From Candidatus Caldarchaeales archaeon (GTDB taxonomy: Archaea > Thermoproteota > Nitrososphaeria_A > Caldarchaeales > Calditenuaceae), in NCBI GenBank assembly GCA_039630085.1, contig JBCNVM010000001.1, forward strand, positions 30,768-94,767: a stretch of 64,000 nucleotides of DNA, given 5' to 3'. Made by a program: the position numbers and the translations under genes. The notes under the pieces are model-generated. The model was not told where the DNA came from. It did no database searches and saw nothing but the letters and a program-made list of their open reading frames with translations. Shown here piece by piece: positions 942 to 21,659 of this stretch (the first letter of the stretch is position 1; each line of letters begins with the position of its first letter).

Positions 942-1039
942 TGGACCGGGCGGGACTCGAACCCGCGACCTCTCCCGGGCGAGCTCTGTGCCCGCCACCC
1001 GGGTGCAAACCGGGCGATCTGCCGCTGATCTACCGGCCC
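942..1039 (-). tRNA. tRNA-Ala(UGC) with a ~26-nt intervening sequence downstream of the anticodon arm
   Basis: Minus-strand read: GGGCCGG-TA-GATC..GATC-G-CCCGG-TTTGCAC-CCGGG-[~26 nt]-..GGTC-GCGGG-TTCGAGT-CCCGC-CCGGTCC-A. The G3:U70 alanine identity pair is present. Total 98 nt; CCA is not encoded. Confidence 0.85.
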
Positions 1040-1089: not shown

Positions 1090-2532
1090 TCACGAGTGCC
1101 TCCTCAGGTACCTCTCGATCAGGAACTTACTCTTCAGGGACTCCTCGGACATCCTCCTCACCTTCCCGTAGATCCTCGACTCGGCGAAGGGCCTGTCGAA
1201 GGCGCCGAAGCACCAGCTTATCCCAAGGTAGCTGTTCGGGTCGACGCCGTCGAGCGCGTACCTGTCGTTGAGGTAGACGGCGTACTCGAACGCGGTCCTG
1301 GGGTCCTCGGTCCACTCGATCAGCCTCTTGCACCAGTACATCCGCATGTAGTTGTGGATCTTCCCGGTCCTCAGGAGCTCCCTCTGGGCCGCGTTCCAGT
1401 ACCTGTCGTGAGTCTGGGCTCTCTCCAGCTCCTCGAGACTGTAAACGTGCTCGCGCCTGTCTGAGGCGTGCTCCTCGAGCGTCCCCCTCGCCCAAGCGGG
1501 GAGGCCCTCGAACTTCCCGAAATCGGGGTTGTGGACCGCCGCGTTCCTAGCGAGCTCCCTCCAGACTACTAGCTCGTCGATAAGCCTGCTCACGTTGGCG
1601 TCGTCCGGACCGAAGGACTTCAGGGCCTCCCGGAGCACTTGGACCGGCGAGATCATCCCCCACCTGAGGTAAGGGCTGAGCTCCGACGTCGCGTCCGCGC
1701 CGGGGTCAGACCTCTTCTCCGCGTAGAACTTCAGCCTTTCCCGCACGAAGACGTCGAGCCGCCGCAGAGCTTCGTCCTCGCCGCCGACGTAGTAGTCGAC
1801 CGGAGGGACGGTCACGTCAATGTCCAGCCCGTTAAGGTAGCCCTCGACCGAGTCCTCGTCCCAGCTCGCGACGTCCATATCCAGAGAGGGCACCTTGATC
1901 TCTAGCTGGGGGACATCCTCTAGGAAGCTCTGGAGGTTCTTCAAGATCTTCGGCCTTATGGTCCTCGCGTAAGGCTCGGCCTTCGTGGACGCGACTCCGA
2001 CCGGGACTACGACATCTCCCTCGACCATCGCGACCGGTGACTCGGCCCCCTCGACCGCTTCCCTCAGGAACCTCCTCTGGTGCGGGAGGTAGGGCGAATC
2101 CAGCACGACCATGCACGACTCCTCGATCAGGGGGACGAAGTCGGAGTTCCTCCTGACCACCAGCTTGATCCCCCTTCGGGCGAGGGAGCTCCTGAGCTTG
2201 ATCATCCCCTCGAGCATGAACCTGAACCTCCTCAGGTTGGGGTGGGGCTTCCTCTCGATCAGCGGGAACACGACCAGCAGGGGCCTCCGGAGCCCATTGG
2301 CTGCGTAGACCGCGTACTCCAGCGCGTAGTTGTGAACAGACCTGTGGGAGGCGTACATCAGGTACGTCACGAACTCGCCCCGTGCCCCTCCTTCACCCGG
2401 CTTGAGCGAGTGGACCCGCTCCGGCCTGATGAAGCTCGGAGGAGGCAGCACGCGAGTCACTCGGAGCCTCCGCAATAAATCCACGACTCGTGCGCTGAGC
2501 TTGAATTCGGCGGAATAGAACGCAGAGCGCAT
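1090..2532 (-). CDS. phr: deoxyribodipyrimidine (CPD) photolyase, class II
   Basis: 480 aa. The C-terminal block YWNAAQRELLRTGKIHNYMRMYWCKRLIEW...SYLGISWCFG and the N-terminal alpha/beta domain are typical of class II photolyases. Confidence 0.9.
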   Translation of the reverse strand: MRSAFYSAEFKLSARVVDLLRRLRVTRVLPPPSFIRPERVHSLKPGEGGARGEFVTYLMYASHRSVHNYALEYAVYAANGLRRPLLVVFPLIERKPHPNLRRFRFMLEGMIKLRSSLARRGIKLVVRRNSDFVPLIEESCMVVLDSPYLPHQRRFLREAVEGAESPVAMVEGDVVVPVGVASTKAEPYARTIRPKILKNLQSFLEDVPQLEIKVPSLDMDVASWDEDSVEGYLNGLDIDVTVPPVDYYVGGEDEALRRLDVFVRERLKFYAEKRSDPGADATSELSPYLRWGMISPVQVLREALKSFGPDDANVSRLIDELVVWRELARNAAVHNPDFGKFEGLPAWARGTLEEHASDRREHVYSLEELERAQTHDRYWNAAQRELLRTGKIHNYMRMYWCKRLIEWTEDPRTAFEYAVYLNDRYALDGVDPNSYLGISWCFGAFDRPFAESRIYGKVRRMSEESLKSKFLIERYLRRHS

Positions 2533-2712
2533 GACTTCCTTAAGAGGAAAATTGTTAGTTTTTGCTATTCGTCGGTTCTGAGCACAACACTTTTGATTGA
2601 ATAATTATGACTGGTCAGGTACAAATCATGTATGACGTGAACGTAGAACTCCTTCGGACTTTTGTTGTCAACGAGTCTTGCCAATAATTATCACTGAGGA
2701 ATAGCGATACCA

Positions 2713-3543
2713 TTATACGATATAAGCAAGCTCGCCGCTTTTGAACTTCTTCCTTATCAGTTCTTTATCACAGATGTTCGAAATCACCTCACCAACTGAG
2801 TTATAAAGATTATAAGTCGTCATTAGCTGAACAAACCTAAAGCGAGATCTTACCGCGTTTAACACATCGTTGGAAAATGGTGAGTCCCTTTCACGAGGTG
2901 GGTGCGACCTAAAGTGGTTAACCATCAGTATGGGTACAAGATTATCCTCACCTGTTTCGTCTAACTTTCTAAGGTAATGATCTACAACCTGTCTAAGATC
3001 ACGTATGTTTGCCCATCTTTCCAACCCTTTCACTTCAATTATTGCAAAATAGTCCCCATCTCTGACTTCGAGATCGTGGATACCTTCTATTTCTGTAGGT
3101 TCAACTTTAAAACCTAAAAAATCTAGAGTGAAAGCTACAGCATCAACAAGTTCATAACCACTGGATGTTAAAAGAAGTTCGAATTTTTCATAGATTTCGA
3201 GCTCGCGATTTAACTTCTTTATTTGATCTTCTAAATTCTTCTTTTGTGGAAAAGAGTATTCTGATATCCACGTTGGTCTTGTAGATTTTTTAGAAAGATT
3301 TTCAACCATATACGCTGGTGCTACCAGTTTAAGTTTTCTTCGTTGATCAAAAACTACTTTTAGCCTAGATTCATTTATTAGATGATTTACATAACGAAGT
3401 ACCTCATTACGTGTCATATCGCCCTTCAAGTTCTCGTGGATCATTGGTATAGTACAAAATTTTTTATATTTATCAATGTATTCTTCTATAATATTATAAA
3501 TTTTATCAGCCTTCTGCGGGTCTATTTCTTTGCGTTTTGGCAT
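2713..3543 (-). CDS. wHTH / coiled-coil / Mrr-like restriction-endonuclease-fold (PD-(D/E)xK) protein
   Basis: 276 aa. N-terminal winged-helix-like segment (TRNEVLRYVNHLINESRLKVV). Heptad-like middle (LEDQIKKLNRELEIYEKFE). C-terminal YELVDAVAFTLDFLGFKV..GIHDLEV..YFAIIEVKG resembles the Mrr_cat D...ExK core. Confidence 0.6.
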   Translation of the reverse strand: MPKRKEIDPQKADKIYNIIEEYIDKYKKFCTIPMIHENLKGDMTRNEVLRYVNHLINESRLKVVFDQRRKLKLVAPAYMVENLSKKSTRPTWISEYSFPQKKNLEDQIKKLNRELEIYEKFELLLTSSGYELVDAVAFTLDFLGFKVEPTEIEGIHDLEVRDGDYFAIIEVKGLERWANIRDLRQVVDHYLRKLDETGEDNLVPILMVNHFRSHPPRERDSPFSNDVLNAVRSRFRFVQLMTTYNLYNSVGEVISNICDKELIRKKFKSGELAYIV

Positions 3544-3573
3544 GGCTATTGTTCAACTTTAATTTTCCTTTGA

Positions 3574-3861
3574 TTACTTTGGGTTTTTTTTCGCGATTAG
3601 TTTCCTTCCTCGTCTTGCCCTAGTTAATGCTACATTTACAGTATTGTTGGTAGTCCCTAATATTTTCGCTATCTCCTTAGGTGTTAGCCCCAATCGAGAG
3701 AGGAGTTCGATTTTCTCTTGTTGATTGAACTCCATAGGAAGAGAAATAGCTAGCAAACTTATGATTGTATTTAATCTAATTGTTAGTTCTTGGAATTCGA
3801 CCTTGAGCATCTCAGTTAATTCAATTGATTTCGTGACCTTTTCCACCTTCATCGAGCTCAC
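3574..3861 (-). CDS. small HTH DNA-binding protein (island gene)
   Basis: 95 aa; C-terminal HTH LSRLGLTPKEIAKILGTTNNTVNVALTRARR followed by a basic tail; AT-rich codon usage. Confidence 0.55.
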   Translation of the reverse strand: MSSMKVEKVTKSIELTEMLKVEFQELTIRLNTIISLLAISLPMEFNQQEKIELLSRLGLTPKEIAKILGTTNNTVNVALTRARRGRKLIAKKNPK

Positions 3862-4261
3862 CCTTTAGACTGAAGTTATCTCTAAGTGAGTATTCCTTCA
3901 TCTTAAGCTTTTGTGTTTTTCGGTTCTTCTTTAAATTTGAGATGTTAATACCTAACTCCTCTAATTTAAATAATGACCTCTCTTTACGTCCCTCACTTAT
4001 CGCTAATCGGTTCTCCACAAATTTTTTCACCCATCCCGTCACAGTGCGCCTTGGAATGCCAGTCATTTTAGAGATTTCAAGGTCTGAACGGTTACCGTCA
4101 AGATTGTTGTAAACTACGGCTTTTTCATAAGTGTCAATCACCTTCTTGGCGTTGTCGGAAACGATTGAAGCTGCAATTATGCGAGTATATACTAGTAACT
4201 GATTGAGAGCTTCCTCTATTCTCTTCTCGGAATTTTTCCCCTGTTTGTCCGATCTCTTCAT
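3821..4261 (-). CDS. HTH DNA-binding protein (island gene; transposase/resolvase-type HTH)
   Basis: 146 aa; HTH SDLEISKMTGIPRRTVTGWVKKF. Its layout (N-terminal helix then HTH) parallels the 95-aa neighbour. It overlaps the next gene by 41 nt. Confidence 0.55.
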   Translation of the reverse strand: MKRSDKQGKNSEKRIEEALNQLLVYTRIIAASIVSDNAKKVIDTYEKAVVYNNLDGNRSDLEISKMTGIPRRTVTGWVKKFVENRLAISEGRKERSLFKLEELGINISNLKKNRKTQKLKMKEYSLRDNFSLKGELDEGGKGHEIN

Positions 4262-4378
4262 GCTCTTTCGTTACTTGATATTTCTCACTTTCAACGTTTT
4301 TGTTGACCAATTGATTAGAGCCCGCATTTACAATACATCAAAGACACTAAAATCATAGAGGGCATCTACGATATAGTT

Positions 4379-4406
4379 GTGCAATTTTATCTTTAAATAA
4401 TTGCAC
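4379..4406. repeat. perfect 8-bp inverted repeat GTGCAATT-N12-AATTGCAC upstream of the island cassette
   Basis: Read directly: 4379-4386 gtgcaatt and 4399-4406 aattgcac. It lies ~120 nt upstream of the start at 4261. Confidence 0.6.
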
Positions 4407-4596
4407 TAACACATTGAGATATAGTCGATTTTTCATTACAAACAGTATTTGGCCATTAGATATCAAAAGTATTTGGTCGAATAAAGTTGATATGTATCTG
4501 CCGTCCGCGTTCCGTGTCTTAATTAAGTCTCTATGCGAGGTCTTAGGTTTCATTAACTACCTCACTTCCCGTTTGGACACCAATTAAAACGTGGCA

Positions 4597-4671
4597 TGCC
4601 CCGGCCGGGATTTGAACCCGGGTCTCGGGCTCGAGAGGCCCGCATACTTGACCGGGCTATACTACCGGGGC
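4597..4671 (-). tRNA. tRNA-Glu(CUC)
   Basis: Minus-strand read: GCCCCGG-TA-GTAT..GTAT-G-CGGGC-CTCTCGA-GCCCG-AGAC-CCGGG-TTCAAAT-CCCGG-CCGGGGC-A. 75 nt; CCA not encoded. Confidence 0.9.
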
Positions 4672-4832
4672 CTCCGCAGACTTTGTGATCAGTGTCATCT
4701 ATTAGCGCTTTCCTTCCCTGGGTACGTCCAGTTCACCCCGGGACTGAACAGGGGCGCGTGAAGCTAACGGGGCGACGAAGGTGCATCAGGGAAAGAGGGC
4801 GGACGTTCAGGTCGCGGAGCTCGGCTATCTGC

Positions 4833-5996
4833 TCACCCGGCCCTGATCTCGACGACGTCGCCGTCGGAGAGGACGTGGTCCGGACCGACCCTCTGGCCTT
4901 GGACCTTGACCGACCTTCCCCAGACCCTCGCGTACCTGAAGCCCCTCGCGAGGTCCTTGTGGATCAGCTCCGCCAGCTCGATGACCGTCGCGCCCTCGGG
5001 CAGTAGGATCGGCCTGTTCGAGACGACTCCGTCCTTCTGGGTGTAGACTCTGACCAGCGTCAGCGCGCCGAAGACCGCCTCCTTAAGCTCCTCGATCGAG
5101 CGGGGGTCTTTCACGGAGGTGGACACAACCCTCAGTCCCGTGCGGTCCTCCAGCTCCTCGGAGAGCTCTCTGGCCCTCGCGGCGCCGACGAGGTCGGACC
5201 TGTTGAGGGCGACCAGGGCCCTCCTGTAGACCGGCTGGACGATCACCTGCTCCTCGATCTCGTCGAGGGTCGCCTCCCCGATCACCTTCACGACCGCTGA
5301 GCTGTAGCCGTAGGACCTCAGGAGCTCGACGACCTCATCGGCCCTGCAGTGGATCTTCCCCAGAACGACCAGCCTTATCCCGCCGCCGTCGGTCCTCTGT
5401 ACCTTGACGTCGCACCTAGGCCTCCTCAGGGAGATCCCGTGGTCCTCGAGGAGGGACCTGACCGCCTCGAGCTGCGCGAACGGGTCCGAGGCCGCGTCGA
5501 CGACGATCAGGATCAGGTCGCTGTTCCTCGCCACCGAGACGGACCTCCTCGCGAAGGCGGTGGGCCGGAGGTCTTCGGTGAGGACCGGAGGCAGGTCGAC
5601 CACTTGGACCTCCGCGTCCCTGATCAGCGCCATTCCGGGGTAGGGCCTAGTGGTGGTGAGCGGGTAATCGGCGACCGGAGACTTCGCGTTGGTGAGGGCG
5701 TTGAGGAGCGAGGACTTCCCGGAGTTCGCGGGGCCGATGAGCGCCACCTGCGCCCACCCCTCCTTCTCGACGGAGAACTCGTCCCTTCCCCCGGACCTCC
5801 TCGACCTCCTCTCCTCGAGCTCGGACCTGAGTTCCGCAAGCCTCTTTCTTAGCTGCCTCCTCAGCTTCTCCGTGCCCTTGTGGTCCGGTATCAGGCCGAT
5901 CGCCTCCTCGAGCCTCGCGATCTTCTCCTCGATCGTCCTGGCCGAGGAGTACTCCGCGAGCTTCGCCCTCGCCTCCGCCGGGAGGTTCGTGGGCAT
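4833..5996 (-). CDS. DRG/Obg-family GTP-binding protein with a C-terminal TGS domain
   Basis: 387 aa; P-loop GPANSGKSS; G-domain followed by a TGS-like C-terminus (VRVYTQKDG...GDVVEI). Confidence 0.85.
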   Translation of the reverse strand: MPTNLPAEARAKLAEYSSARTIEEKIARLEEAIGLIPDHKGTEKLRRQLRKRLAELRSELEERRSRRSGGRDEFSVEKEGWAQVALIGPANSGKSSLLNALTNAKSPVADYPLTTTRPYPGMALIRDAEVQVVDLPPVLTEDLRPTAFARRSVSVARNSDLILIVVDAASDPFAQLEAVRSLLEDHGISLRRPRCDVKVQRTDGGGIRLVVLGKIHCRADEVVELLRSYGYSSAVVKVIGEATLDEIEEQVIVQPVYRRALVALNRSDLVGAARARELSEELEDRTGLRVVSTSVKDPRSIEELKEAVFGALTLVRVYTQKDGVVSNRPILLPEGATVIELAELIHKDLARGFRYARVWGRSVKVQGQRVGPDHVLSDGDVVEIRAG

Positions 5997-6065
5997 CCGG
6001 TGACCGAGGACGACTCCGCGATTTATCCACGTTGCGCGGGTCGAGCCTGAACGAACCGGCTCAAG

Positions 6066-6073
6066 CTTTTAAG
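6066..6073 (+). promoter_or_regulatory. TATA-like box (CTTTTAAG) for the elf1-rps10 unit
   Basis: AT-rich octamer centred ~28 nt upstream of the TTG start at 6098, implying a leaderless or near-leaderless mRNA. Confidence 0.45.
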
Positions 6074-6097
6074 AAACTCGGGGAGTGATGGCGCGGA

Positions 6098-6505
6098 TTG
6101 GGCAGGCGGAGAAGGAAGATCATCAAGAGGACGCCCAAGCCGTTCCCCAAGGTCTTCTACTGCCCTCTGTGCAACCAGCAGGCGGTCACGGTCGTGAACG
6201 TCAGCGGCTACGTCGCGAGGGTGAGCTGCGGCAACTGCGGCGTCTCGCACGACGTCCCCTGGTACAGGAGCTCGATGCCAGTCGACGCCTACTCCATCTG
6301 GTACGACGTCGTGATGGGCAGGGTCACGGAGGAGGAGGTCGCCCGTAAAATCGAGAGGCTGAAGGCGGTCCATGAGGTGGTCCTAGAGGAGGCCGGAGAG
6401 CTGGCCGAGGAGGTGCCGGTCGAGCCGGTCGAGGATGCCGCAACGGTTGATAAGTCGGACGAGGGCGAGGTGGTCCCGGAAGATGAAGCAGGTCGTCAGG
6501 ATTAA
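6098..6505 (+). CDS. elf1: Elf1-type zinc-ribbon transcription elongation factor homologue with an acidic C-terminal extension
   Basis: MGRRRRKIIKR...FYCPLCN...VSCGNCG...PVDAYSIWYD matches the Elf1 basic N-terminus, the CxxC...CxxC ribbon and the PVDVYSxWxD motif. Confidence 0.8.
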   Translation: MGRRRRKIIKRTPKPFPKVFYCPLCNQQAVTVVNVSGYVARVSCGNCGVSHDVPWYRSSMPVDAYSIWYDVVMGRVTEEEVARKIERLKAVHEVVLEEAGELAEEVPVEPVEDAATVDKSDEGEVVPEDEAGRQD

Positions 6506-6797
6506 GCTGGCGTCGACGGACCTCGAGAGATTGGAGAGCCTCTGTAAGGAGATCAAGGAGATCGCGACGAGGAGCGGTGCGAAGGTGAGGGGACCCACCC
6601 CGCTGCCCACCACCAAGCTCGTGCTTCCGGTCAGGAAGAGCCCCTGCGGCGAGGGGACGAAGACATGGAGGAAGTGGGAGATGAGGGTCCACAAGCGGCT
6701 GATGGACCTCACTATCACAGACCCGCGTGTAATGAGGGAGATAATGAGGATCCAAGTCCCTGAAACTATAGCGATCGAGATGCGGGTTAAAGGCTGA
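6483..6797 (+). CDS. rps10: 30S ribosomal protein S10
   Basis: From the internal ATG at 6483: MKQVVRIKLAS...GPTPLPTTKL...KSPCGEGTKTWRKWEMRVHKRL...RIQVP. It overlaps the elf1 3' end by 23 nt. Confidence 0.93.
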   Translation: MKQVVRIKLASTDLERLESLCKEIKEIATRSGAKVRGPTPLPTTKLVLPVRKSPCGEGTKTWRKWEMRVHKRLMDLTITDPRVMREIMRIQVPETIAIEMRVKG

Positions 6798-6810
6798 AGG
6801 TCCCGGGCTT

Positions 6811-8109
6811 CTACTTCCCTAACTTCGTTATCTCCCTGACGATCCCTGCTCCTATGGTCATCCCCATGTCCCTTAGCGCGAACCTCCCGAGCTGCGGGAA
6901 CTCGCTGTAGGGCTCGAGGGCCACGGGCTTGAGGGGTTGCAGCTTGACCATCGCGGCGTCGCCGGTCCTGAGGAACTGCGGGTTCTTCTCGACGACCTGG
7001 CCGGTCCTCGGGTCGATCTTCGCCTCCAGCTCCGCGAACCTGACTGCAGTCTGGGCCGTGTGGATGTGCATGACCGGGGTGTAGCCAACTGCTATCGCGG
7101 TCGGGTGGTTGATGATGATCACCTGGGCCCTGAACTCCTCAGCCACCTTGCAGGGGTTGTCCGAGTGACTGACGACCATCCCGCGGGCGAGCTGCGTCTT
7201 GTCGACGCCCTTGAGGTTGAAACCGATGTTGTCGCCGGGGACCGCCTGAGGGAGCGGCGTGTGGTGCATCTCTATGCTCTTGACCTCCGCCCTGATTCCG
7301 CCGGGCATGATCACGACCTGGTCGCCGGGCTTTAGGACGCCGGTCTCGACCCTGCCTACCGGTACGGTGCCTACCCCCTTGATCGAGTAGACGGCTTGGA
7401 TCGGGATCCTGAGCGGCTTGTCGACCGGCTTCGGAGGCTCTTGGAAGGCGTCGAGGGCCTCGAGGAAGGTCGGCCCGGTGTACCAAGGCATGTTCTTGCT
7501 CCTCTCGACGAGGTTGTCGCCCGTCCACCCGGAGACCGGGATGAAGTTGACCTTGGAGGGGTCGATGCCTATCTGCCTCATGAGCGCGGAGACACCCTGC
7601 TTCACCTCCTCGTACCTCTCCTTGGACCAGTTGACGGTCGGGTCGTCCATCTTGTTGATCAGCACTAGGATCTGCCTTATGCCGAGCATGTAGGCGAGGA
7701 AGAGGTGCTCCCTGGCCTGACCGCCGGGCGCGATCGCGACCTCGTACTCGCCCTTCTTCGCGGAGACCACGAGCACCGCCGCGTCGGCCTGGGAGGCTCC
7801 GGTGATCATGTTCTTGACGAAGTCCCTGTGGCCCGGCGCATCGATGATGGTGAAGAAGTTCTTCTTCGTCTCGAACTTCTGGAAGCTCAGCGTGATCGTC
7901 AGCCCCCTCTCCCTCTCCTCCTTGATCGTGTCCATGATGAACGCGTAGAGGAAGGTCTCCTTACCCAGCCTCTTCGCCTCCTCCTCGAGTTGCTTCAGCT
8001 GCCTCTCGTCGACCGCGCCGTTCAGCACCAGGAAGTGGCCCAACGTCGTCGACTTCCCGTGGTCGACGTGCCCTATCACGATCATGTTGATGTGCGGCTT
8101 TCCGGACAT
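6811..8109 (-). CDS. tuf: translation elongation factor aEF-1 alpha
   Basis: 432 aa; GHVDHGKST, DAPGHRDF and NKMD motifs; full-length similarity to the EF-1alpha/EF-Tu family. Confidence 0.97.
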   Translation of the reverse strand: MSGKPHINMIVIGHVDHGKSTTLGHFLVLNGAVDERQLKQLEEEAKRLGKETFLYAFIMDTIKEERERGLTITLSFQKFETKKNFFTIIDAPGHRDFVKNMITGASQADAAVLVVSAKKGEYEVAIAPGGQAREHLFLAYMLGIRQILVLINKMDDPTVNWSKERYEEVKQGVSALMRQIGIDPSKVNFIPVSGWTGDNLVERSKNMPWYTGPTFLEALDAFQEPPKPVDKPLRIPIQAVYSIKGVGTVPVGRVETGVLKPGDQVVIMPGGIRAEVKSIEMHHTPLPQAVPGDNIGFNLKGVDKTQLARGMVVSHSDNPCKVAEEFRAQVIIINHPTAIAVGYTPVMHIHTAQTAVRFAELEAKIDPRTGQVVEKNPQFLRTGDAAMVKLQPLKPVALEPYSEFPQLGRFALRDMGMTIGAGIVREITKLGK

Positions 8110-8229
8110 CCTCGCTCGGAGTTCTGAACCTACGTGCCGTATTTAAAATTCTTCCCCGGGAGCTGAGCGGAGCTCAGGTCTCGGAGCGCGCACGTCGGGT
8201 GACCGGATGAGCGGAACCGGCCAGCGGGC

Positions 8230-8787
8230 TCACCTAGAGGCCAGCGCGACCCTCTCCTGCTCGATCTTCTTCTTGACCGCGTAGCTCTTGACGTCGTTCG
8301 ACGCGGCAGCGATGATCTCGTCTGCGAGCGCCTCGTCTATTGTCTTTGCGGACCTGAAGGAGCTAGCCCTCGCGCCCTCCGCCATCCACCTCAGGGCCAG
8401 GTCGAGCCTCCTCTGGGGAGAGATGTCGACGGCCTTGAAGTAGGTGATGCCTCCGTAGGTGACCCGCGTCGTGTCCTCCCTGGGAGCCGCGTTCTCGATC
8501 GCCCTGACTAATACCTGAATCGGGTTCTCACCGGTCCTCAGCTGAATGATGTGGAGCGCGTTCTTCACCGCGAGCAGGGCCTTCTGCTTCTTCCCTCCGT
8601 TCTTGCCGGGCCTCATCAGCATGTTCGCGAGCCTCTCGACGACGTTCACGTTCGCCTTCCCGAACCTCCTGTGCTCGTGCCGGCCGCCGCTGTGGGGGAG
8701 GACCACGGGCTTCAGGTTGATGTACGCTCGAAGCCCCGGGTCCCTGACCTCGACGCCGCTGACGTCCCACTGGTCGAAGACCTTCAT
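8230..8787 (-). CDS. rps7: 30S ribosomal protein S7
   Basis: 185 aa; ...[20 protein letters not shown]...[12 protein letters not shown]... is typical archaeal S7. Confidence 0.93.
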
Positions 8788-8906
8788 CGTCCGTCGTGAG
8801 CAGCCGCCGCAACAATTTAAGCGTGGTCTCCCGGAGGGCCTGACGTCCGGACCGCGAGTGCGGGCGATTACGGTTATAAAAGGGGCGTTCGGATTGTGAC
8901 AGCGGG

Positions 8907-9362
8907 TTGTTGGAGCGGAAGTCTGCGGGGGCGGTGATATTCAACGACAGCATCGGAGACCGGTACTACCTGTTGCTCCTCTACAGCGCTGGGCACTGGG
9001 ACTTCCCCAAGGGCGGGATCGAGGAGGGCGAGACCGAGGTCGAGGCGGTGGTCAGGGAGGTCTACGAGGAGACCGGGATAAGGGAGATGCAGTTGATAGA
9101 CGGGTTCAGGCAGACGATCCAGTACTCCTACAGGAGCCAGCAGGGAGAGGTGAGGAAGAGCGTGGTCTTCTACCTCGCGAAGACCGCGACGTTCGACGTC
9201 AGGCTCAGCCACGAGCACAAGGGCTACGCGTGGCTGAAGTACGAGGACGCGATCGACCAGCTCACGTACAACACCGCGAAGTCGGTGCTGAGGGTCGCCG
9301 ACGTCTTCCTGAACGGCCTGAGGAGGTCGAGCCAAGAGGGCAAAATTAAGGCCCTGAGGTAG
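8907..9362 (+). CDS. NUDIX hydrolase
   Basis: Nudix box [32 protein letters not shown] box at 8874-8881 precedes the TTG start. Confidence 0.85.
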
Positions 9363-9368
9363 GCGCGC

Positions 9369-11096
9369 TTGACGGGCAGGATCGCGGTCCTGACGCTACT
9401 CGCAGCCCTGATCTTCGCCAGCTTCGGGACCGTCGTCGGGGAGGAACATCAGCTCGAGCTGGAGGTCGTCGACGCCACGGGAAGGCCCGTGTCCGGTGTC
9501 GAGCTGGCGCTGATCGACGGAGGGGTGAGGAGGGCCTTCAGGACGACCGACGCTGGTCTCGCGGTCTTCAGGGCCCTCCAAGCCGGGACCTACCTCGCCC
9601 AGCTCCAGGTGGACGGGGTTCTGGTCCTCAACGAGACGGTCTCCGTGCCTCACGAGGGTAGGCCTAGGCTCGTGGCCAAGGTCGCGCCGCTGAGCCTAGT
9701 CGTCCTCGACGCCGACGGCCTCCCCGTGAAGGGCCTGACGGTCAGAGTGGCGGCCGGCGCGGGAAGGGTCGTAAGGGAGGCGGTGACCGGGGAGGCGGGG
9801 ACCGTCACGTACAGCAACCTCCCGCTGTCGGAGCTCCCTGCCGTGGGCGTATACACCGTCTCGATCAGGGTCCAGGGAGTTACGGCCGAACTGGGGACCC
9901 TGAGGCACGACCTATCCAGGGAGCGCTACGAGTTCGCCGGCCCCTTCGCGACGGTCCGGATAAGGGTCGTCGACTTGGCGGGCAACCCCCTCCCCGACGG
10001 CTCGGTCACGCTCCTCGCCGGCCGGGTGACCTACAGGGCGGGCATCGAGGAGGGCAACGCCGAGCTAAGGGGCGTCCTGACCTCCGACGTCGCCGGGATG
10101 TACGGCATCTCGGTCTTCAGGCTCTACGGGAGGAACCGCGTCAACGTCACGCTGCTCGACACGTCGCTGGAACTGGTCAGGTCGACCAACCTGACCCTCG
10201 TTGCCAACGCTCTGGACCTCGAGGTCAGGGCACTGGCCGACGGCCAGGACCCGATAGCGAGTGCGCGGGTGTCCGTGATCTCCGCGAGGGGCGAGCTGGA
10301 CTCCGGGGTCACCGACTCCGAGGGGAGGGCGAAGTTCAGGGCCCTGCCCGCCTCTCAGGCGGCTGAGGTCGGGGACTTGAGGCTGAGCCTCAGCCTCGGC
10401 GGGCGTTCCCTCCTTAACGTCACGCACAGGTTGACCCTCGAGGGCACCTCGCTCAGGCTCGCGGCAAGGAGGGTGGAGCTAATGGTAAGCTTGGTCGCCG
10501 CCGACGGGTCCCCGCTCGCGGGAGCGCTGGTCCAAACAACCGAACCCGGCACTGGCAGGAGGATCAACGCGACGTCGGACCGTTCCGGCATCGCACGTGT
10601 CAAGGCCCTGCCGGTCCCGCTGAGGGTTTCCGTCTTTTACGAGGGGGTTGTGGTCCACGCCGCGGACCTCGACCCCTCTAAGGGGACGGCCGAAGTCAGG
10701 GTCTCAGGCGCGAGGATACCTGTGACGGTCGAGGTGAGGGACTGGCTCGGCGCGAAGTCGCCCGGCTTGACTCTGAGGGCCCATCAGTCGGGCAGGGAGG
10801 TCGCTGTCCAGAGGACGGACGGCTCGTTCTCGCTGGTCGTCCCCGTGAAGGGGAGCCTGGCTCTGGAGGTTTACCTCGACGGCCGCCTGATCGAGAAGAG
10901 GGTTCTGGCGGTGACCGCGCCTTCCCACGAGGTCCTGGTGGTTAGCGGGCTCTTCGCCGGCGGCGGCCTGATGGGGCCGGAGGCGATAGGGCTGGCCTTC
11001 TCGGCGACGGTCTCCACGGCGATGATCGCGGCCGGGGTCTCCTTGGTCCTGAGGGCCCGGAGGCGGACGTCTGCGGCTCAGGCGAGGGCTTCGTAG
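9369..11096 (+). CDS. secreted/anchored surface protein with at least 5 carboxypeptidase-regulatory-like (prealbumin-fold) repeats
   Basis: N-terminal signal/TM (IAVLTLLAALIFASFG). Recurring VVDxxGxPvxGaxVxl...TDxxGxaxFxxLpxGxY units. Several NxS/T sequons. C-terminal TM plus a basic tail. Confidence 0.7.
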   Translation: MTGRIAVLTLLAALIFASFGTVVGEEHQLELEVVDATGRPVSGVELALIDGGVRRAFRTTDAGLAVFRALQAGTYLAQLQVDGVLVLNETVSVPHEGRPRLVAKVAPLSLVVLDADGLPVKGLTVRVAAGAGRVVREAVTGEAGTVTYSNLPLSELPAVGVYTVSIRVQGVTAELGTLRHDLSRERYEFAGPFATVRIRVVDLAGNPLPDGSVTLLAGRVTYRAGIEEGNAELRGVLTSDVAGMYGISVFRLYGRNRVNVTLLDTSLELVRSTNLTLVANALDLEVRALADGQDPIASARVSVISARGELDSGVTDSEGRAKFRALPASQAAEVGDLRLSLSLGGRSLLNVTHRLTLEGTSLRLAARRVELMVSLVAADGSPLAGALVQTTEPGTGRRINATSDRSGIARVKALPVPLRVSVFYEGVVVHAADLDPSKGTAEVRVSGARIPVTVEVRDWLGAKSPGLTLRAHQSGREVAVQRTDGSFSLVVPVKGSLALEVYLDGRLIEKRVLAVTAPSHEVLVVSGLFAGGGLMGPEAIGLAFSATVSTAMIAAGVSLVLRARRRTSAAQARAS

Positions 11097-11998
11097 AGCC
11101 TCAGGTAGGACTTGGTCACCCTCCGGTAGTCGAGGTCCTTCACGATCTCCCTGCCCCTCCTGATCAGCCTGTCCCTGGCCGACTCCAGCTCCCCGAATGC
11201 CTCCACCCACCTCTCAGGGACGGGGTCGGTCAGCAGCACCGCGTCCTCGAAGGGCTCGAAGGCCGGGATCCTGTTCGCGATGACCGGGCACCCCGAGGCC
11301 CAGGCCTCCAGCAGGACGCTCGGCATCCCCTCCCAACTCGACGTGATCATCAGGCAGACCGCGGACTTCATATGGGATATCACCTCCCTCCAGGGCGCGA
11401 CCCGTTCAACGCCGAAGGCGACGTGCCTGACCCCGAGCCTCCTCACCACCTCCTTGAAGAGGCGGTAGTTCTTGATCGGGTCGTTCCTCCCTACGAAGAG
11501 GACGCAGCTCTCCTCGGCGGGCTCGACCTCCTCGATCGCCCGGACGTCGGTCATGTTGGGTATCCAGGTCCAACCCCTCCTGTCGGCTTCGTAACGCATC
11601 ACGGTCGTGAGGGCACCAACGCGTCCCCGCATCGCCCTGATCCCGAACCAGAGCGCGTCCGCGACCGGCCCGTACTTCATCCTGAACTCGGCCTCTCCGC
11701 CGTGCACGGTGACCACGCCCCTCTCCGCGAAGGCGAGCGATGCCAGCAGCTTCGGCGAGTGGACGTGCACCACATCGAACCCCCTCACCCTCAGCGACGC
11801 CCCGACCGAGAAGGTGAGCGACTTGAGCTTCGGGACTCCCAGCGCCCACGCGTTGCCCGCGTGCACCGCGACGGCGTTCACCCCTTCCTCCCTCAGCCCC
11901 CTGTGGAGCAGTTGGACGTGCCTGCCGGATCCGCTCGCGCCGCCGTAGGTGTAGTTGACCAGAGCGACCCTCAACCCTTCGCCGACGGTGCGTTCCAA
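11078..11998 (-). CDS. glycosyltransferase, GT4/group 1 family
   Basis: 306 aa; GT-B-like N-terminus (GGASGSGRHV) and C-terminal ...TSSWEGMPSVLLEAWASGCPVIA (EX7E-type region). Confidence 0.75.
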   Translation of the reverse strand: MERTVGEGLRVALVNYTYGGASGSGRHVQLLHRGLREEGVNAVAVHAGNAWALGVPKLKSLTFSVGASLRVRGFDVVHVHSPKLLASLAFAERGVVTVHGGEAEFRMKYGPVADALWFGIRAMRGRVGALTTVMRYEADRRGWTWIPNMTDVRAIEEVEPAEESCVLFVGRNDPIKNYRLFKEVVRRLGVRHVAFGVERVAPWREVISHMKSAVCLMITSSWEGMPSVLLEAWASGCPVIANRIPAFEPFEDAVLLTDPVPERWVEAFGELESARDRLIRRGREIVKDLDYRRVTKSYLRLYEALA

Positions 11999-12033
11999 CG
12001 TTTAATAGGTGAACCCGTGTCCGGACCGCAGAG

Positions 12034-21448: not shown

Positions 21449-21571
21449 CTCCTTTCGTGCTGCTTCGCTGGGGCTCAACTTAAAGACCTTGCCGCACGGG
21501 GGACGCCCGAGCGGCGGCGACCCGAAGCATCGGGAACGCCGGAGGACGGAGGGAAACGGTGGTTTGCGGCG

Positions 21572-21659
21572 CGGGCCCGCCGGGACTCGAACCCGGGACC
21601 TTCGGCTTTCCCCGGCCAGATAGAAGGCCGACGCTCTGTCCTGGCTGAGCTACGGGCCC
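21572..21659 (-). tRNA. tRNA-Arg(UCU) with a ~13-nt canonical (37/38) intron
   Basis: Minus-strand read: GGGCCCG-TA-GCTC..AGAGC-G-TCGGC-CTTCTA[TCTGGCCGGGGAA]A-GCCGA-AGGTC-CCGGG-TTCGAGT-CCCGG-CGGGCCC-G. 88 nt. Confidence 0.85.

Follow-up and report, generated by a model that had tools for sequence, protein, structure and literature searches.

What is a block of about 2 kb of AT-rich DNA doing between the photolyase gene phr and the 3' end of a tRNA-Glu(CUC) gene in an otherwise GC-rich archaeal genome, and by what route did it get there? The block lies at positions 2533-4596 of the stretch analysed here, 64,000 nucleotides from GenBank assembly GCA_039630085.1 (contig JBCNVM010000001.1, positions 30,768 to 94,767), which is called the window below. 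By its drg locus, the host is a metagenome-assembled genome (MAG) of the Calditenuaceae (Caldarchaeales, "Aigarchaeota"). The island is almost certainly recent foreign DNA. It has taken the place of a host dehydrogenase gene, and it encodes a predicted endonuclease of an undescribed family together with two helix-turn-helix (HTH) proteins. The explanation preferred for it, at roughly even chances, is that it is what survives of an integrative element.

The island, its borders and the gene it displaced

A first-pass annotation, made by eye from the sequence, had described a low-GC island at 2533-4596 whose codon usage and protein composition differ from those of its surroundings, and had recommended that the composition be computed. 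When this was done, the island proved to have 36.8% G+C as against 64.8% for the other 62 kb of the window, and a maximum-likelihood fit of two change-points placed its borders at 2531 and 4589. With the island excluded, the G+C fraction of native 500-nt windows has a mean of 0.648 (standard deviation 0.027, minimum 0.562); every 500-nt window below 0.50 lies inside or overlaps the island, the sole sub-50% stretch of the 64 kb. Its tetranucleotide profile stands 36 standard deviations away from the native 2-kb tiles (z = 36). The genes share in the deviation. G+C at third codon positions (GC3) is 0.31-0.43 in the island open reading frames (ORFs) and 0.82-0.92 in phr, drg, EF-1alpha and a 120-aa ORF at 6435-6797 (S10-like, as judged by eye), while the residues F, Y, N, I and K make up 0.29-0.34 of the island proteins and 0.14-0.24 of the native ones. 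The island and its coordinates, as well as the shift in codons and residues, were thus correctly described. No second copy of it occurs within the window.

For comparison, 66 drg loci were collected from one-genome-per-species contigs, using the Drg protein as query. In the nearest relative, L001 (JAVQSZ010000001), Drg is 93% identical at the amino acid level and the locus has 63.7% G+C; in L004 and L045 the identity is 81%, and in Ca. Calditenuis 71-72%. By blastn, the window and L001 align in two blocks, 1-2488 with L001 14535-12076 at 85% identity and 4597-12000 with L001 11421-3982 at 89%. Homology breaks at 2488/2489 and again at 4596/4597, the 3' end of tRNA-Glu, and the 2108 bp of window 2489-4596 occupy a slot that in L001 holds 654 unrelated, GC-rich bp. 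The island is absent from L001, L004 and L045 despite their conserved flanks. In L004 and L045 an intact gene for a 291-aa short-chain dehydrogenase (SDR) occupies the space from tRNA-Glu to phr; it is on the opposite strand, with its stop codon 2 nt from the tRNA 3' end and its start 89 nt from the phr start. A tblastn search with this SDR gives 95% identity across the full length in L045; in L001 it finds only residues 115-291, at 76% identity and split into short ORFs, that is, a 5'-truncated pseudogene; and it finds no homologue anywhere in the window. From these comparisons, the ancestral gene order was drg - tRNA-Glu - SDR - phr, and the SDR gene was already decaying in the clade of L001 and the window. 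Because the gene is intact in L004 and L045, a pseudogene in L001 and gone from the window, the alignments show that the island is recent and took the place of a host gene; it did not enter an empty site. The search for an empty site that had been proposed earlier therefore gave a divided answer: the relatives do lack the island, but the corresponding slot holds the SDR gene or its remnant.

Recent horizontal acquisition from a low-GC source, as the first-pass annotation had suggested, is borne out not only by the absence of the island from the relatives but also by the state of its genes, which are unameliorated in GC3 and tetranucleotides, and by the fact that their sole relatives lie on contigs of 33-50% G+C from other samples. 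The contrary view would be that the AT-rich locus is ancestral and has been maintained by selection, perhaps as a regulatory or defence locus conserved in the family, in which case relatives might be expected to carry the same AT-rich genes at the same locus. These were looked for and were not found. The three closest relatives have the SDR gene or its remnant there and no AT-rich DNA; none of the profiled relatives (L001-L006, L011 and L045) has an AT-rich stretch downstream of drg; and among the 66 drg loci, windows more than 0.15 in G+C under the locus mean occur only in L019, 7-8 kb from its drg. The intactness of the island genes is all that speaks for an ancestral locus, which is refuted by the alignments and the SDR search and is left with next to no probability.

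It is also very improbable that the island is an artefact of assembly or binning, in which low-GC DNA of another organism was joined into the contig at a conserved tRNA sequence. tRNA genes are classic points of chimeric joining, and the island has been seen only in the source MAG and in one short contig of the Logan collection. That contig, however (L069, run SRR28200751, 2222 bp), was independently assembled and is 100% identical to window 4630..2409; it crosses both junctions, reaching 34 nt into the tRNA and 124 nt into phr, with all of the island between them. Moreover, the flanks are native and syntenic in order and orientation, so that two chimeric joins would be required, one of them in non-repetitive DNA upstream of phr. 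An assembly chimera was rejected on these grounds. There is no sign in L069 of an island-free variant with the same junction k-mers. The contig breaks off inside the tRNA (4630) and inside phr (2409), away from the island junctions, a hint that the sample may contain strain variants or a paralogous tRNA.

The features that define the two borders are, in window coordinates:

1090-2451, minus strand: phr (photolyase; Pfam DNA_photolyase), native, with conserved start GTG 2451-2449 and 453 aa
2475-2486, minus strand: TATA-like box with bases resembling a B recognition element (BRE); TTTAT at 2479-2475, invariant in the four-genome alignment; putative phr core promoter
2489-2531, no strand: left junction zone, about 58% G+C by eye; not alignable to L001 and only weakly to the SDR-phr spacer of L004 and L045
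2532-4596, no strand: AT-rich foreign island as delimited by composition; the replaced segment as delimited by homology is 2489-4596
4597-4671, minus strand: tRNA-Glu(CUC) (ARAGORN; Rfam 62.8 bits), native, intact and intronless; the island's right border coincides with its 3' end
4833-5996, minus strand: drg (developmentally regulated GTPase with TGS domain; Pfam TGS and MMR_HSR1), native synteny anchor

At the left border, phr had been thought to start at 2532, directly against the island, and to have its promoter in foreign-looking DNA. Both statements have to be corrected. The ATG at 2532 is merely the most upstream start in the phr open frame; the GTG at 2451-2449 is invariant in the window, L001, L004 and L045, and the L004 protein likewise has 453 aa. 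The TTTAT box lies 24-28 nt upstream of this GTG, is preceded by conserved purine-rich bases, and falls inside the block homologous to L001 that ends at 2488. The TATA box of archaeal promoters usually lies near -26, and BRE/TATA geometry of this kind fits a leaderless mRNA. Since the position of TTTAT matches the usual geometry, it is assigned as the likely phr promoter; the core promoter of phr would then be native and its mRNA probably leaderless, with the foreign DNA ending just upstream. The segment 2489-2531 is probably a remnant of the native spacer; the L004 SDR gene, which starts 89 nt ahead of the phr GTG, would begin at about position 2540 of the window. The left junction proper thus lies between 2489 and 2531, and most of the native divergent spacer seems to have been kept.

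The right border is sharper. Homology to L001, L004 and L045 stops at the last base of the tRNA (4597/4596), and AT-rich DNA begins 0-8 nt from the tRNA-Glu 3' end; the distance of about 40 nt that had first been stated is wrong. The 3' half of the tRNA-Glu is identical to that of L001. As a separate observation, the L001 tRNA-Glu(CUC) gene (11327-11423) has a 20-nt intron at the canonical position 37/38 and an altered anticodon stem, while its counterparts in the window, L004 and L045 are intronless.

ORF-D and its helix-turn-helix partners

Every island ORF is encoded on the minus strand, in the same direction as the tRNA, drg and phr. From left to right, the island contains:

2533-2712, minus strand: AT-rich non-coding tail of 180 bp, downstream of ORF-D, with no similarity to the non-coding DNA of the related contig L067
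2713-3543, minus strand: ORF-D, 276 aa, predicted to have a winged helix at the N-terminus, then a long coiled-coil helix, and at the C-terminus a PD-(D/E)xK domain (D157, E170-x-K172)
3574-3861, minus strand: ORF-C, 92-95 aa, Sigma70_r4_2 HTH, Tfx-like; start at ATG 3852 or GTG 3861
3821-4261, minus strand: ORF-B, 146 aa, HTH_23/HTH_28-like (Pfam HTH_23 2.9e-4, under the gathering score)
4262-4596, minus strand: AT-rich non-coding leader of 335 bp, between the tRNA 3' end and ORF-B

ORF-D has no match in Pfam (Mrr_cat and Mrr_N included), PHROGs, NCBIfam or PADLOC, and a sequence profile run against the PDB gives only weak winged-HTH and Hjc matches. An exhaustive search with HMMER, over 1.84 billion cluster representatives, identified 583 relatives at E<=1e-3, five of them at E<=1e-30; the family members that were looked up are annotated as "hypothetical protein" only. 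With its 276 aa, ORF-D is full length relative to its homologues (273-277 aa). An AlphaFold2 model based on a 53-sequence alignment (mean pLDDT 95.8, pTM 0.82) predicts a winged helix at residues 9-76, a long helix at 99-126 and an alpha-beta-beta-beta-alpha-beta domain at 129-209 and beyond, the core of which consists of helices 129-142 and 180-197 and strands 146-149, 158-162, 165-173 and 202-209. In Foldseek searches of the PDB, FokI and the nickase N.BspD6I rank first for the full-length model; the C-terminal domain finds Hjc resolvases, AF1548 and HindIII, and the N-terminal domain the winged helices of MarR and LexA. The matches in a library of viral structures include models labelled "restriction endonuclease" and "Mrr domain". 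In the predicted structure D157 opens beta-2 and E170-x-K172 lies in beta-3 (motif HDLEV...IIEVKG); D157 and E170 are at least 90% conserved in the 53 sequences, and K172 is the consensus residue. By the modelled fold as well as by the catalytic motif, ORF-D thus belongs to the PD-(D/E)xK superfamily, as a predicted winged-HTH endonuclease with FokI/Mrr-like architecture from an undescribed family. It fits neither Mrr nor FokI, nor any defence family so far described; a distant relative, P0136, is alone in reaching Pfam Mrr_cat (21.4 bits).

The assignment of ORF-C is based on a Pfam Sigma70_r4_2 match at 6.1e-08, above the gathering score, along with weak NCBIfam matches to sigma70-ECF and Tfx. 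ORF-B and ORF-C overlap by 32-41 nt, and because of this overlap B, C and D are read as a single operon. The 335-bp leader, which presumably holds the promoter or operator of the operon, includes a doubtful 66-aa ORF (4353-4553) without relatives. By eye it also contains a palindrome, GCAATT-N12-AATTGC, at 4380-4403, a possible operator for the HTH proteins. Rfam gave no match in the non-coding parts of the island, and PADLOC-DB v2 gave none for ORF-D, ORF-B or the 66-aa ORF, with only a marginal HTH match for ORF-C. No methyltransferase is encoded in the island, and the genes on both flanks are native. No transposase catalytic domain is present in it either, the only similarity being a sub-threshold, HTH-only one to the N-termini of IS630 and IS3 proteins.

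The three genes also occur together elsewhere. When the island proteins were compared by tblastn with the contigs that carry ORF-D homologues of the ~270-aa architecture, a B-like gene, a C-like gene or both adjoined the D homologue on every contig long enough to tell (L072, L073 and L075 were too short). The arrangements are as follows, with G+C where available:

L067 (33% G+C): B (63% identity, directly upstream of D) and D (52%)
L068: C and D
L070: three C-like genes and D
L071 (37% G+C): two B-like genes and D
L074: B-like gene and D
L076 (33% G+C): two C-like genes, D and a B-like gene
L077/L078: D, an HTH gene, a gene for a weak HEPN protein and two B-like genes

On L074 and L077 the module lies within a local dip in G+C. 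The most informative of the contigs is L076 (JGI 3300033143), which is archaeal, with genes for L31e, S19e, Cbf5/TruB and a class II aminoacyl-tRNA synthetase adjoining the module region. Its ORF-C-like (45% identity), ORF-D-like (30%) and ORF-B-like (31%) genes form one co-directional block, embedded in a run of at least 16 co-directional ORFans that is followed, about 1.4 kb downstream of the D homologue, by a gene for a 389-aa tyrosine integrase (PHROG_1 at 1.7e-15; XerA/XerC matches in the PDB). PHROG scans of the neighbouring genes found no integrase near the module on L074 and L077. Other kinds of searches added little: a scan of JGI metagenomes returned two contigs of about 1 kb only, and word-indexed protein searches very few relatives.

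On L077 (5279-8438) and L078 (49-3208) the D homologue is followed by a sigma-r4-like HTH gene, a gene for a 270-273-aa weak HEPN_Swt1 protein and two ORF-B-like genes, all in a low-GC dip between AFOR and esterase genes. This block may be an enlarged form of the B/C/D module that has gained an RNase-type effector. The nuclease domain also has longer relatives, of about 400 aa, which sit in toxin-antitoxin or restriction-modification islets; that of L083 is accompanied by DndB, R.MjaI and an N6_N4 methyltransferase. In the archaeal assembly GCA_041643395.1 (L081, 3604-5625), one of 394 aa lies together with an RHH-PIN toxin-antitoxin pair between the genes for RNase P p30 and aIF5A, again a small islet surrounded by housekeeping genes.

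Routes of entry

The right border, exactly at the 3' end of a tRNA gene, is at the usual target of archaeal integrases, and the island was accordingly searched for the traces such an enzyme would leave. Pfam, PHROGs, NCBIfam and PADLOC detect no recombinase domain in the four island ORFs, and the unoccupied island DNA (180 + 335 bp) is too small to encode one. The statement in the first-pass annotation that there is neither a tyrosine recombinase nor a split int(N)/int(C) pair is thereby confirmed, as is the one that no copy of the tRNA 3' half lies at the left border. Smith-Waterman alignment on both strands, with the phr side included, found no tRNA-derived direct repeat at the left border or in the island, the scores being those of shuffled sequences; the tRNA 3' half and its flank share no k-mer of 6 nt or more with 2440-2720; and a seed-7 repeat search found no repeat of the attachment-site (att) type at the island borders.

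Two short repeats were considered and rejected. Exact k-mer comparison of 4575-4680 with 2440-2720 yields only GCCTCCGCA, common to the tRNA 5' flank and 2466-2474; it is the core of a 13-nt direct repeat (12/13) at 2462-2474 and 4666-4678, the latter taking in the first bases of the tRNA, which is weaker in L001 than in the window. A 9-nt match is reached by about 7% of shuffles, and as an att site this chance-level repeat would enclose the conserved tRNA and the phr TATA box in the "element". The pentamer GCATG is found at both composition borders (2529-2533 and 4594-4598), its right copy overlapping the last bases of the tRNA. It is the sole repeat at both edges, only 5 nt long and with an estimated chance probability of ~0.1, and the TG that follows the tRNA, part of the right copy, is not conserved in the relatives; as a border repeat or target-site duplication it is within chance. 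No target-site duplication was found at the island and no convincing terminal inverted repeats, the best pairs being of 12-17 nt with 76-92% identity and not terminal.

The preferred explanation, to which about as much weight is given for as against, is that a low-GC integrative element, cryptic plasmid-like or virus-like and of the tyrosine-recombinase kind, once lay here and that the island is what is left of it. The element would have integrated at the 3' end of tRNA-Glu(CUC) after the lineage had split from its nearest sequenced relative. At least one later deletion would then have removed the integrase end, the distal att repeat and the adjoining, decaying SDR gene, halting just upstream of the phr core promoter at one end and sparing the tRNA at the other; its limits would have been set by selection to preserve the phr promoter and the tRNA. 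What remained would be an intact co-directional operon of two HTH regulators (ORF-B and ORF-C) and the endonuclease ORF-D, in which the HTH proteins would control expression and ORF-D would cut foreign or modified DNA in an Mrr/FokI-like manner. Most likely, such an operon would be a self-regulated DNA-targeting module for defence, exclusion or addiction, and a role of this kind would explain why B, C and D were kept intact while the rest of the element was lost. An integrative origin is favoured by the position of the right border, by L076, where the module lies near a tyrosine integrase, and by the local low-GC dips that hold the D homologues of L074 and L077. The first-pass annotation had offered a decayed element or an unknown route as alternatives; the former is the one favoured here, with entry by way of an integrase deduced and not directly seen.

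Several points weigh against this explanation. With no integrase, no int(N) or int(C) fragment and no att repeat, the proposed route would rest on position and on analogy. In L076, genes occupy at least 3.3 kb upstream of the module; a parent built in that way would have had to undergo a second deletion, on the tRNA side, that ended precisely at the tRNA. None of the other contigs bearing the module has a tRNA. The search of virus and plasmid collections that had been recommended also turned out largely negative: scans of the viral contigs of IMG/VR found no relative, GenBank phages gave a single weak match, and PLSDB plasmids gave four weak matches to the nuclease domain, all hypothetical proteins in uninformative contexts. 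As to function, ORF-D is a lone nuclease, with no methyltransferase or other partner, so that a defence role is unproven, and one member of its family, P0006, has T in place of the motif lysine.

A possible, though rather unlikely, alternative is replacement in one step without an integrase, in which a foreign fragment from a virus, a plasmid or an archaeal chromosome entered by homology-facilitated illegitimate recombination anchored in tRNA-Glu and overwrote the SDR pseudogene. A single event would then account for the loss of the SDR gene, for the lack of att and integrase and for the right border at the tRNA end; at 96% identity between window and L004, the tRNA-Glu could plausibly serve as an anchor even between lineages, and the left join lies in neutral DNA, just clear of the phr core promoter. 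The donor, however, must have carried the module right after its own tRNA-Glu, which itself implies an integrated element in the donor, and neither a donor with such an arrangement nor a tRNA on the related contigs was found. The 3' half of the tRNA, being the same as in L001, shows no donor-type substitutions, and the tRNA itself bears no positive trace of recombination. Considerably less probable is an autonomous cassette without a recombinase, for which ORF-D would break the target near the tRNA-Glu 3' end and host repair would copy B-C-D in, overwriting the neighbouring DNA. The island is indeed compact, intact and bounded by non-coding DNA; its nuclease is predicted to join a sequence-reading winged helix to a FokI-like cleavage domain; and these genes turn up together in unrelated surroundings and within low-GC dips. 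Were this so, the at least 583 relatives would constitute a novel class of archaeal cassettes, selfish or defensive and driven by their nuclease. Yet the copies share neither ends nor non-coding DNA, and the number and order of their genes vary (one to three B or C genes, before or after D); there is no terminal inverted repeat, no target-site duplication and no other copy in the window; the L076 module is cargo of a larger, integrase-bearing element; and the module has no association with tRNA genes elsewhere. The relic of an integrative element is therefore retained as the best of the explanations.

Known systems, neighbouring tRNA genes and significance

The closest known counterparts are the cryptic integrated elements (CIE) of Thaumarchaeota and Ca. 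Caldiarchaeum (Krupovic et al. 2019, PMC6563490), which the island resembles in phylum-level host group, small size, location at tRNA 3' ends, and content of ORFans, HTH proteins and restriction-type nucleases. Among the integrated elements of Thaumarchaeota and Caldiarchaeum, 57% lie in tRNA genes, all but one of those at the 3' end; their att sites can be as short as 8 bp and their sizes go down to 2.6 kb, and some CIE, thought to be inactivated, lack a recognisable att (PMC6563490). CIE are, however, defined by an integrase and flanking direct repeats, whereas the island has neither and has replaced a host gene. Judged as a tRNA-targeting element, it has its border at the tRNA 3' end, deviates in composition and is absent from relatives in which the site holds the SDR gene or its remnant, but it lacks the integrase and the att repeats. 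The island probably derives from a CIE and, lacking these two defining traits, is best filed as a relic genomic islet. The L076 element shares with it the C-, D- and B-like genes in a co-directional block but is larger, with at least 6 kb and at least 16 ORFs, has the 389-aa tyrosine integrase and shows no compositional contrast with its host. SSV-type elements with a "suicidal integrase" (PMC7253208) are also archaeal elements that become fixed at tRNA genes and decay in place; they leave split int(N)/int(C) genes and att repeats at the borders, of which the island has none. An SSV-type element was rejected, the ORFs at the island borders being the 66-aa ORFan and ORF-D, without similarity to integrases. 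An insertion sequence or transposon was rejected as well, there being no transposase domain and no terminal inverted repeats, and GCATG lying within chance.

As regards the nuclease, ORF-D in its modelled form shares with FokI (type IIS) and Mrr (type IV) a winged-helix recognition part and a single PD-(D/E)xK cleavage domain. Identity to them is 12-15%; ORF-D is predicted to have one winged helix and a coiled-coil linker where FokI has three recognition subdomains; and it has no methyltransferase next to it, its partners being HTH regulators. A type II or IIS restriction-modification system was rejected for want of a cognate methyltransferase in the island. In type II cassettes regulated by C proteins, and in HTH-toxin pairs, one or more small HTH genes lie just upstream of the nuclease gene and are co-transcribed with it. 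The B-C-D layout, with HTH genes upstream of the nuclease, is that of the C-protein cassettes, but the island has no methylase, and its HTH proteins are sigma-r4/Tfx-like and HTH_23-like, not C proteins of the Xre type.

Some further tRNA genes of the window were noted in passing. A tRNA-Ala(UGC) gene just downstream of phr (942-1039, minus strand) was missed by ARAGORN but scores 55 bits with Rfam. Following the 3' strand of the anticodon stem it has an insertion of 26 nt, GTGGCGGGCACAGAGCTCGCCCGGGA, seemingly at a non-canonical intron position; the orthologues in L001 (13528-13601) and L004 (13816-13887) are without it. Taken with the tRNA-Glu intron of L001, this insertion shows that tRNA introns have been gained or lost between genomes only about 11-15% diverged. 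Another probable intron-containing tRNA lies at 21571-21659 on the minus strand, where ARAGORN reports "tRNA-???" with a 4-nt anticodon and Rfam a full tRNA (59.9 bits, 88 nt).

A tRNA-linked, horizontally acquired islet is the ordinary product of an ordinary kind of event, and this case by itself opens no new mechanism. It does provide a clean and datable horizontal transfer into the poorly known hot-spring lineage Calditenuaceae, with the states before and after preserved in relatives, from intact SDR gene to SDR pseudogene to foreign DNA, and with borders resolved to a few nucleotides. It also illustrates that a tRNA-linked islet can shed all traces of its integration machinery and still keep a small nuclease operon. 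Beyond the host itself, it draws attention to a widespread family of winged-HTH PD-(D/E)xK proteins which, with their conserved HTH partners, are a candidate module for defence, exclusion or addiction in archaea.

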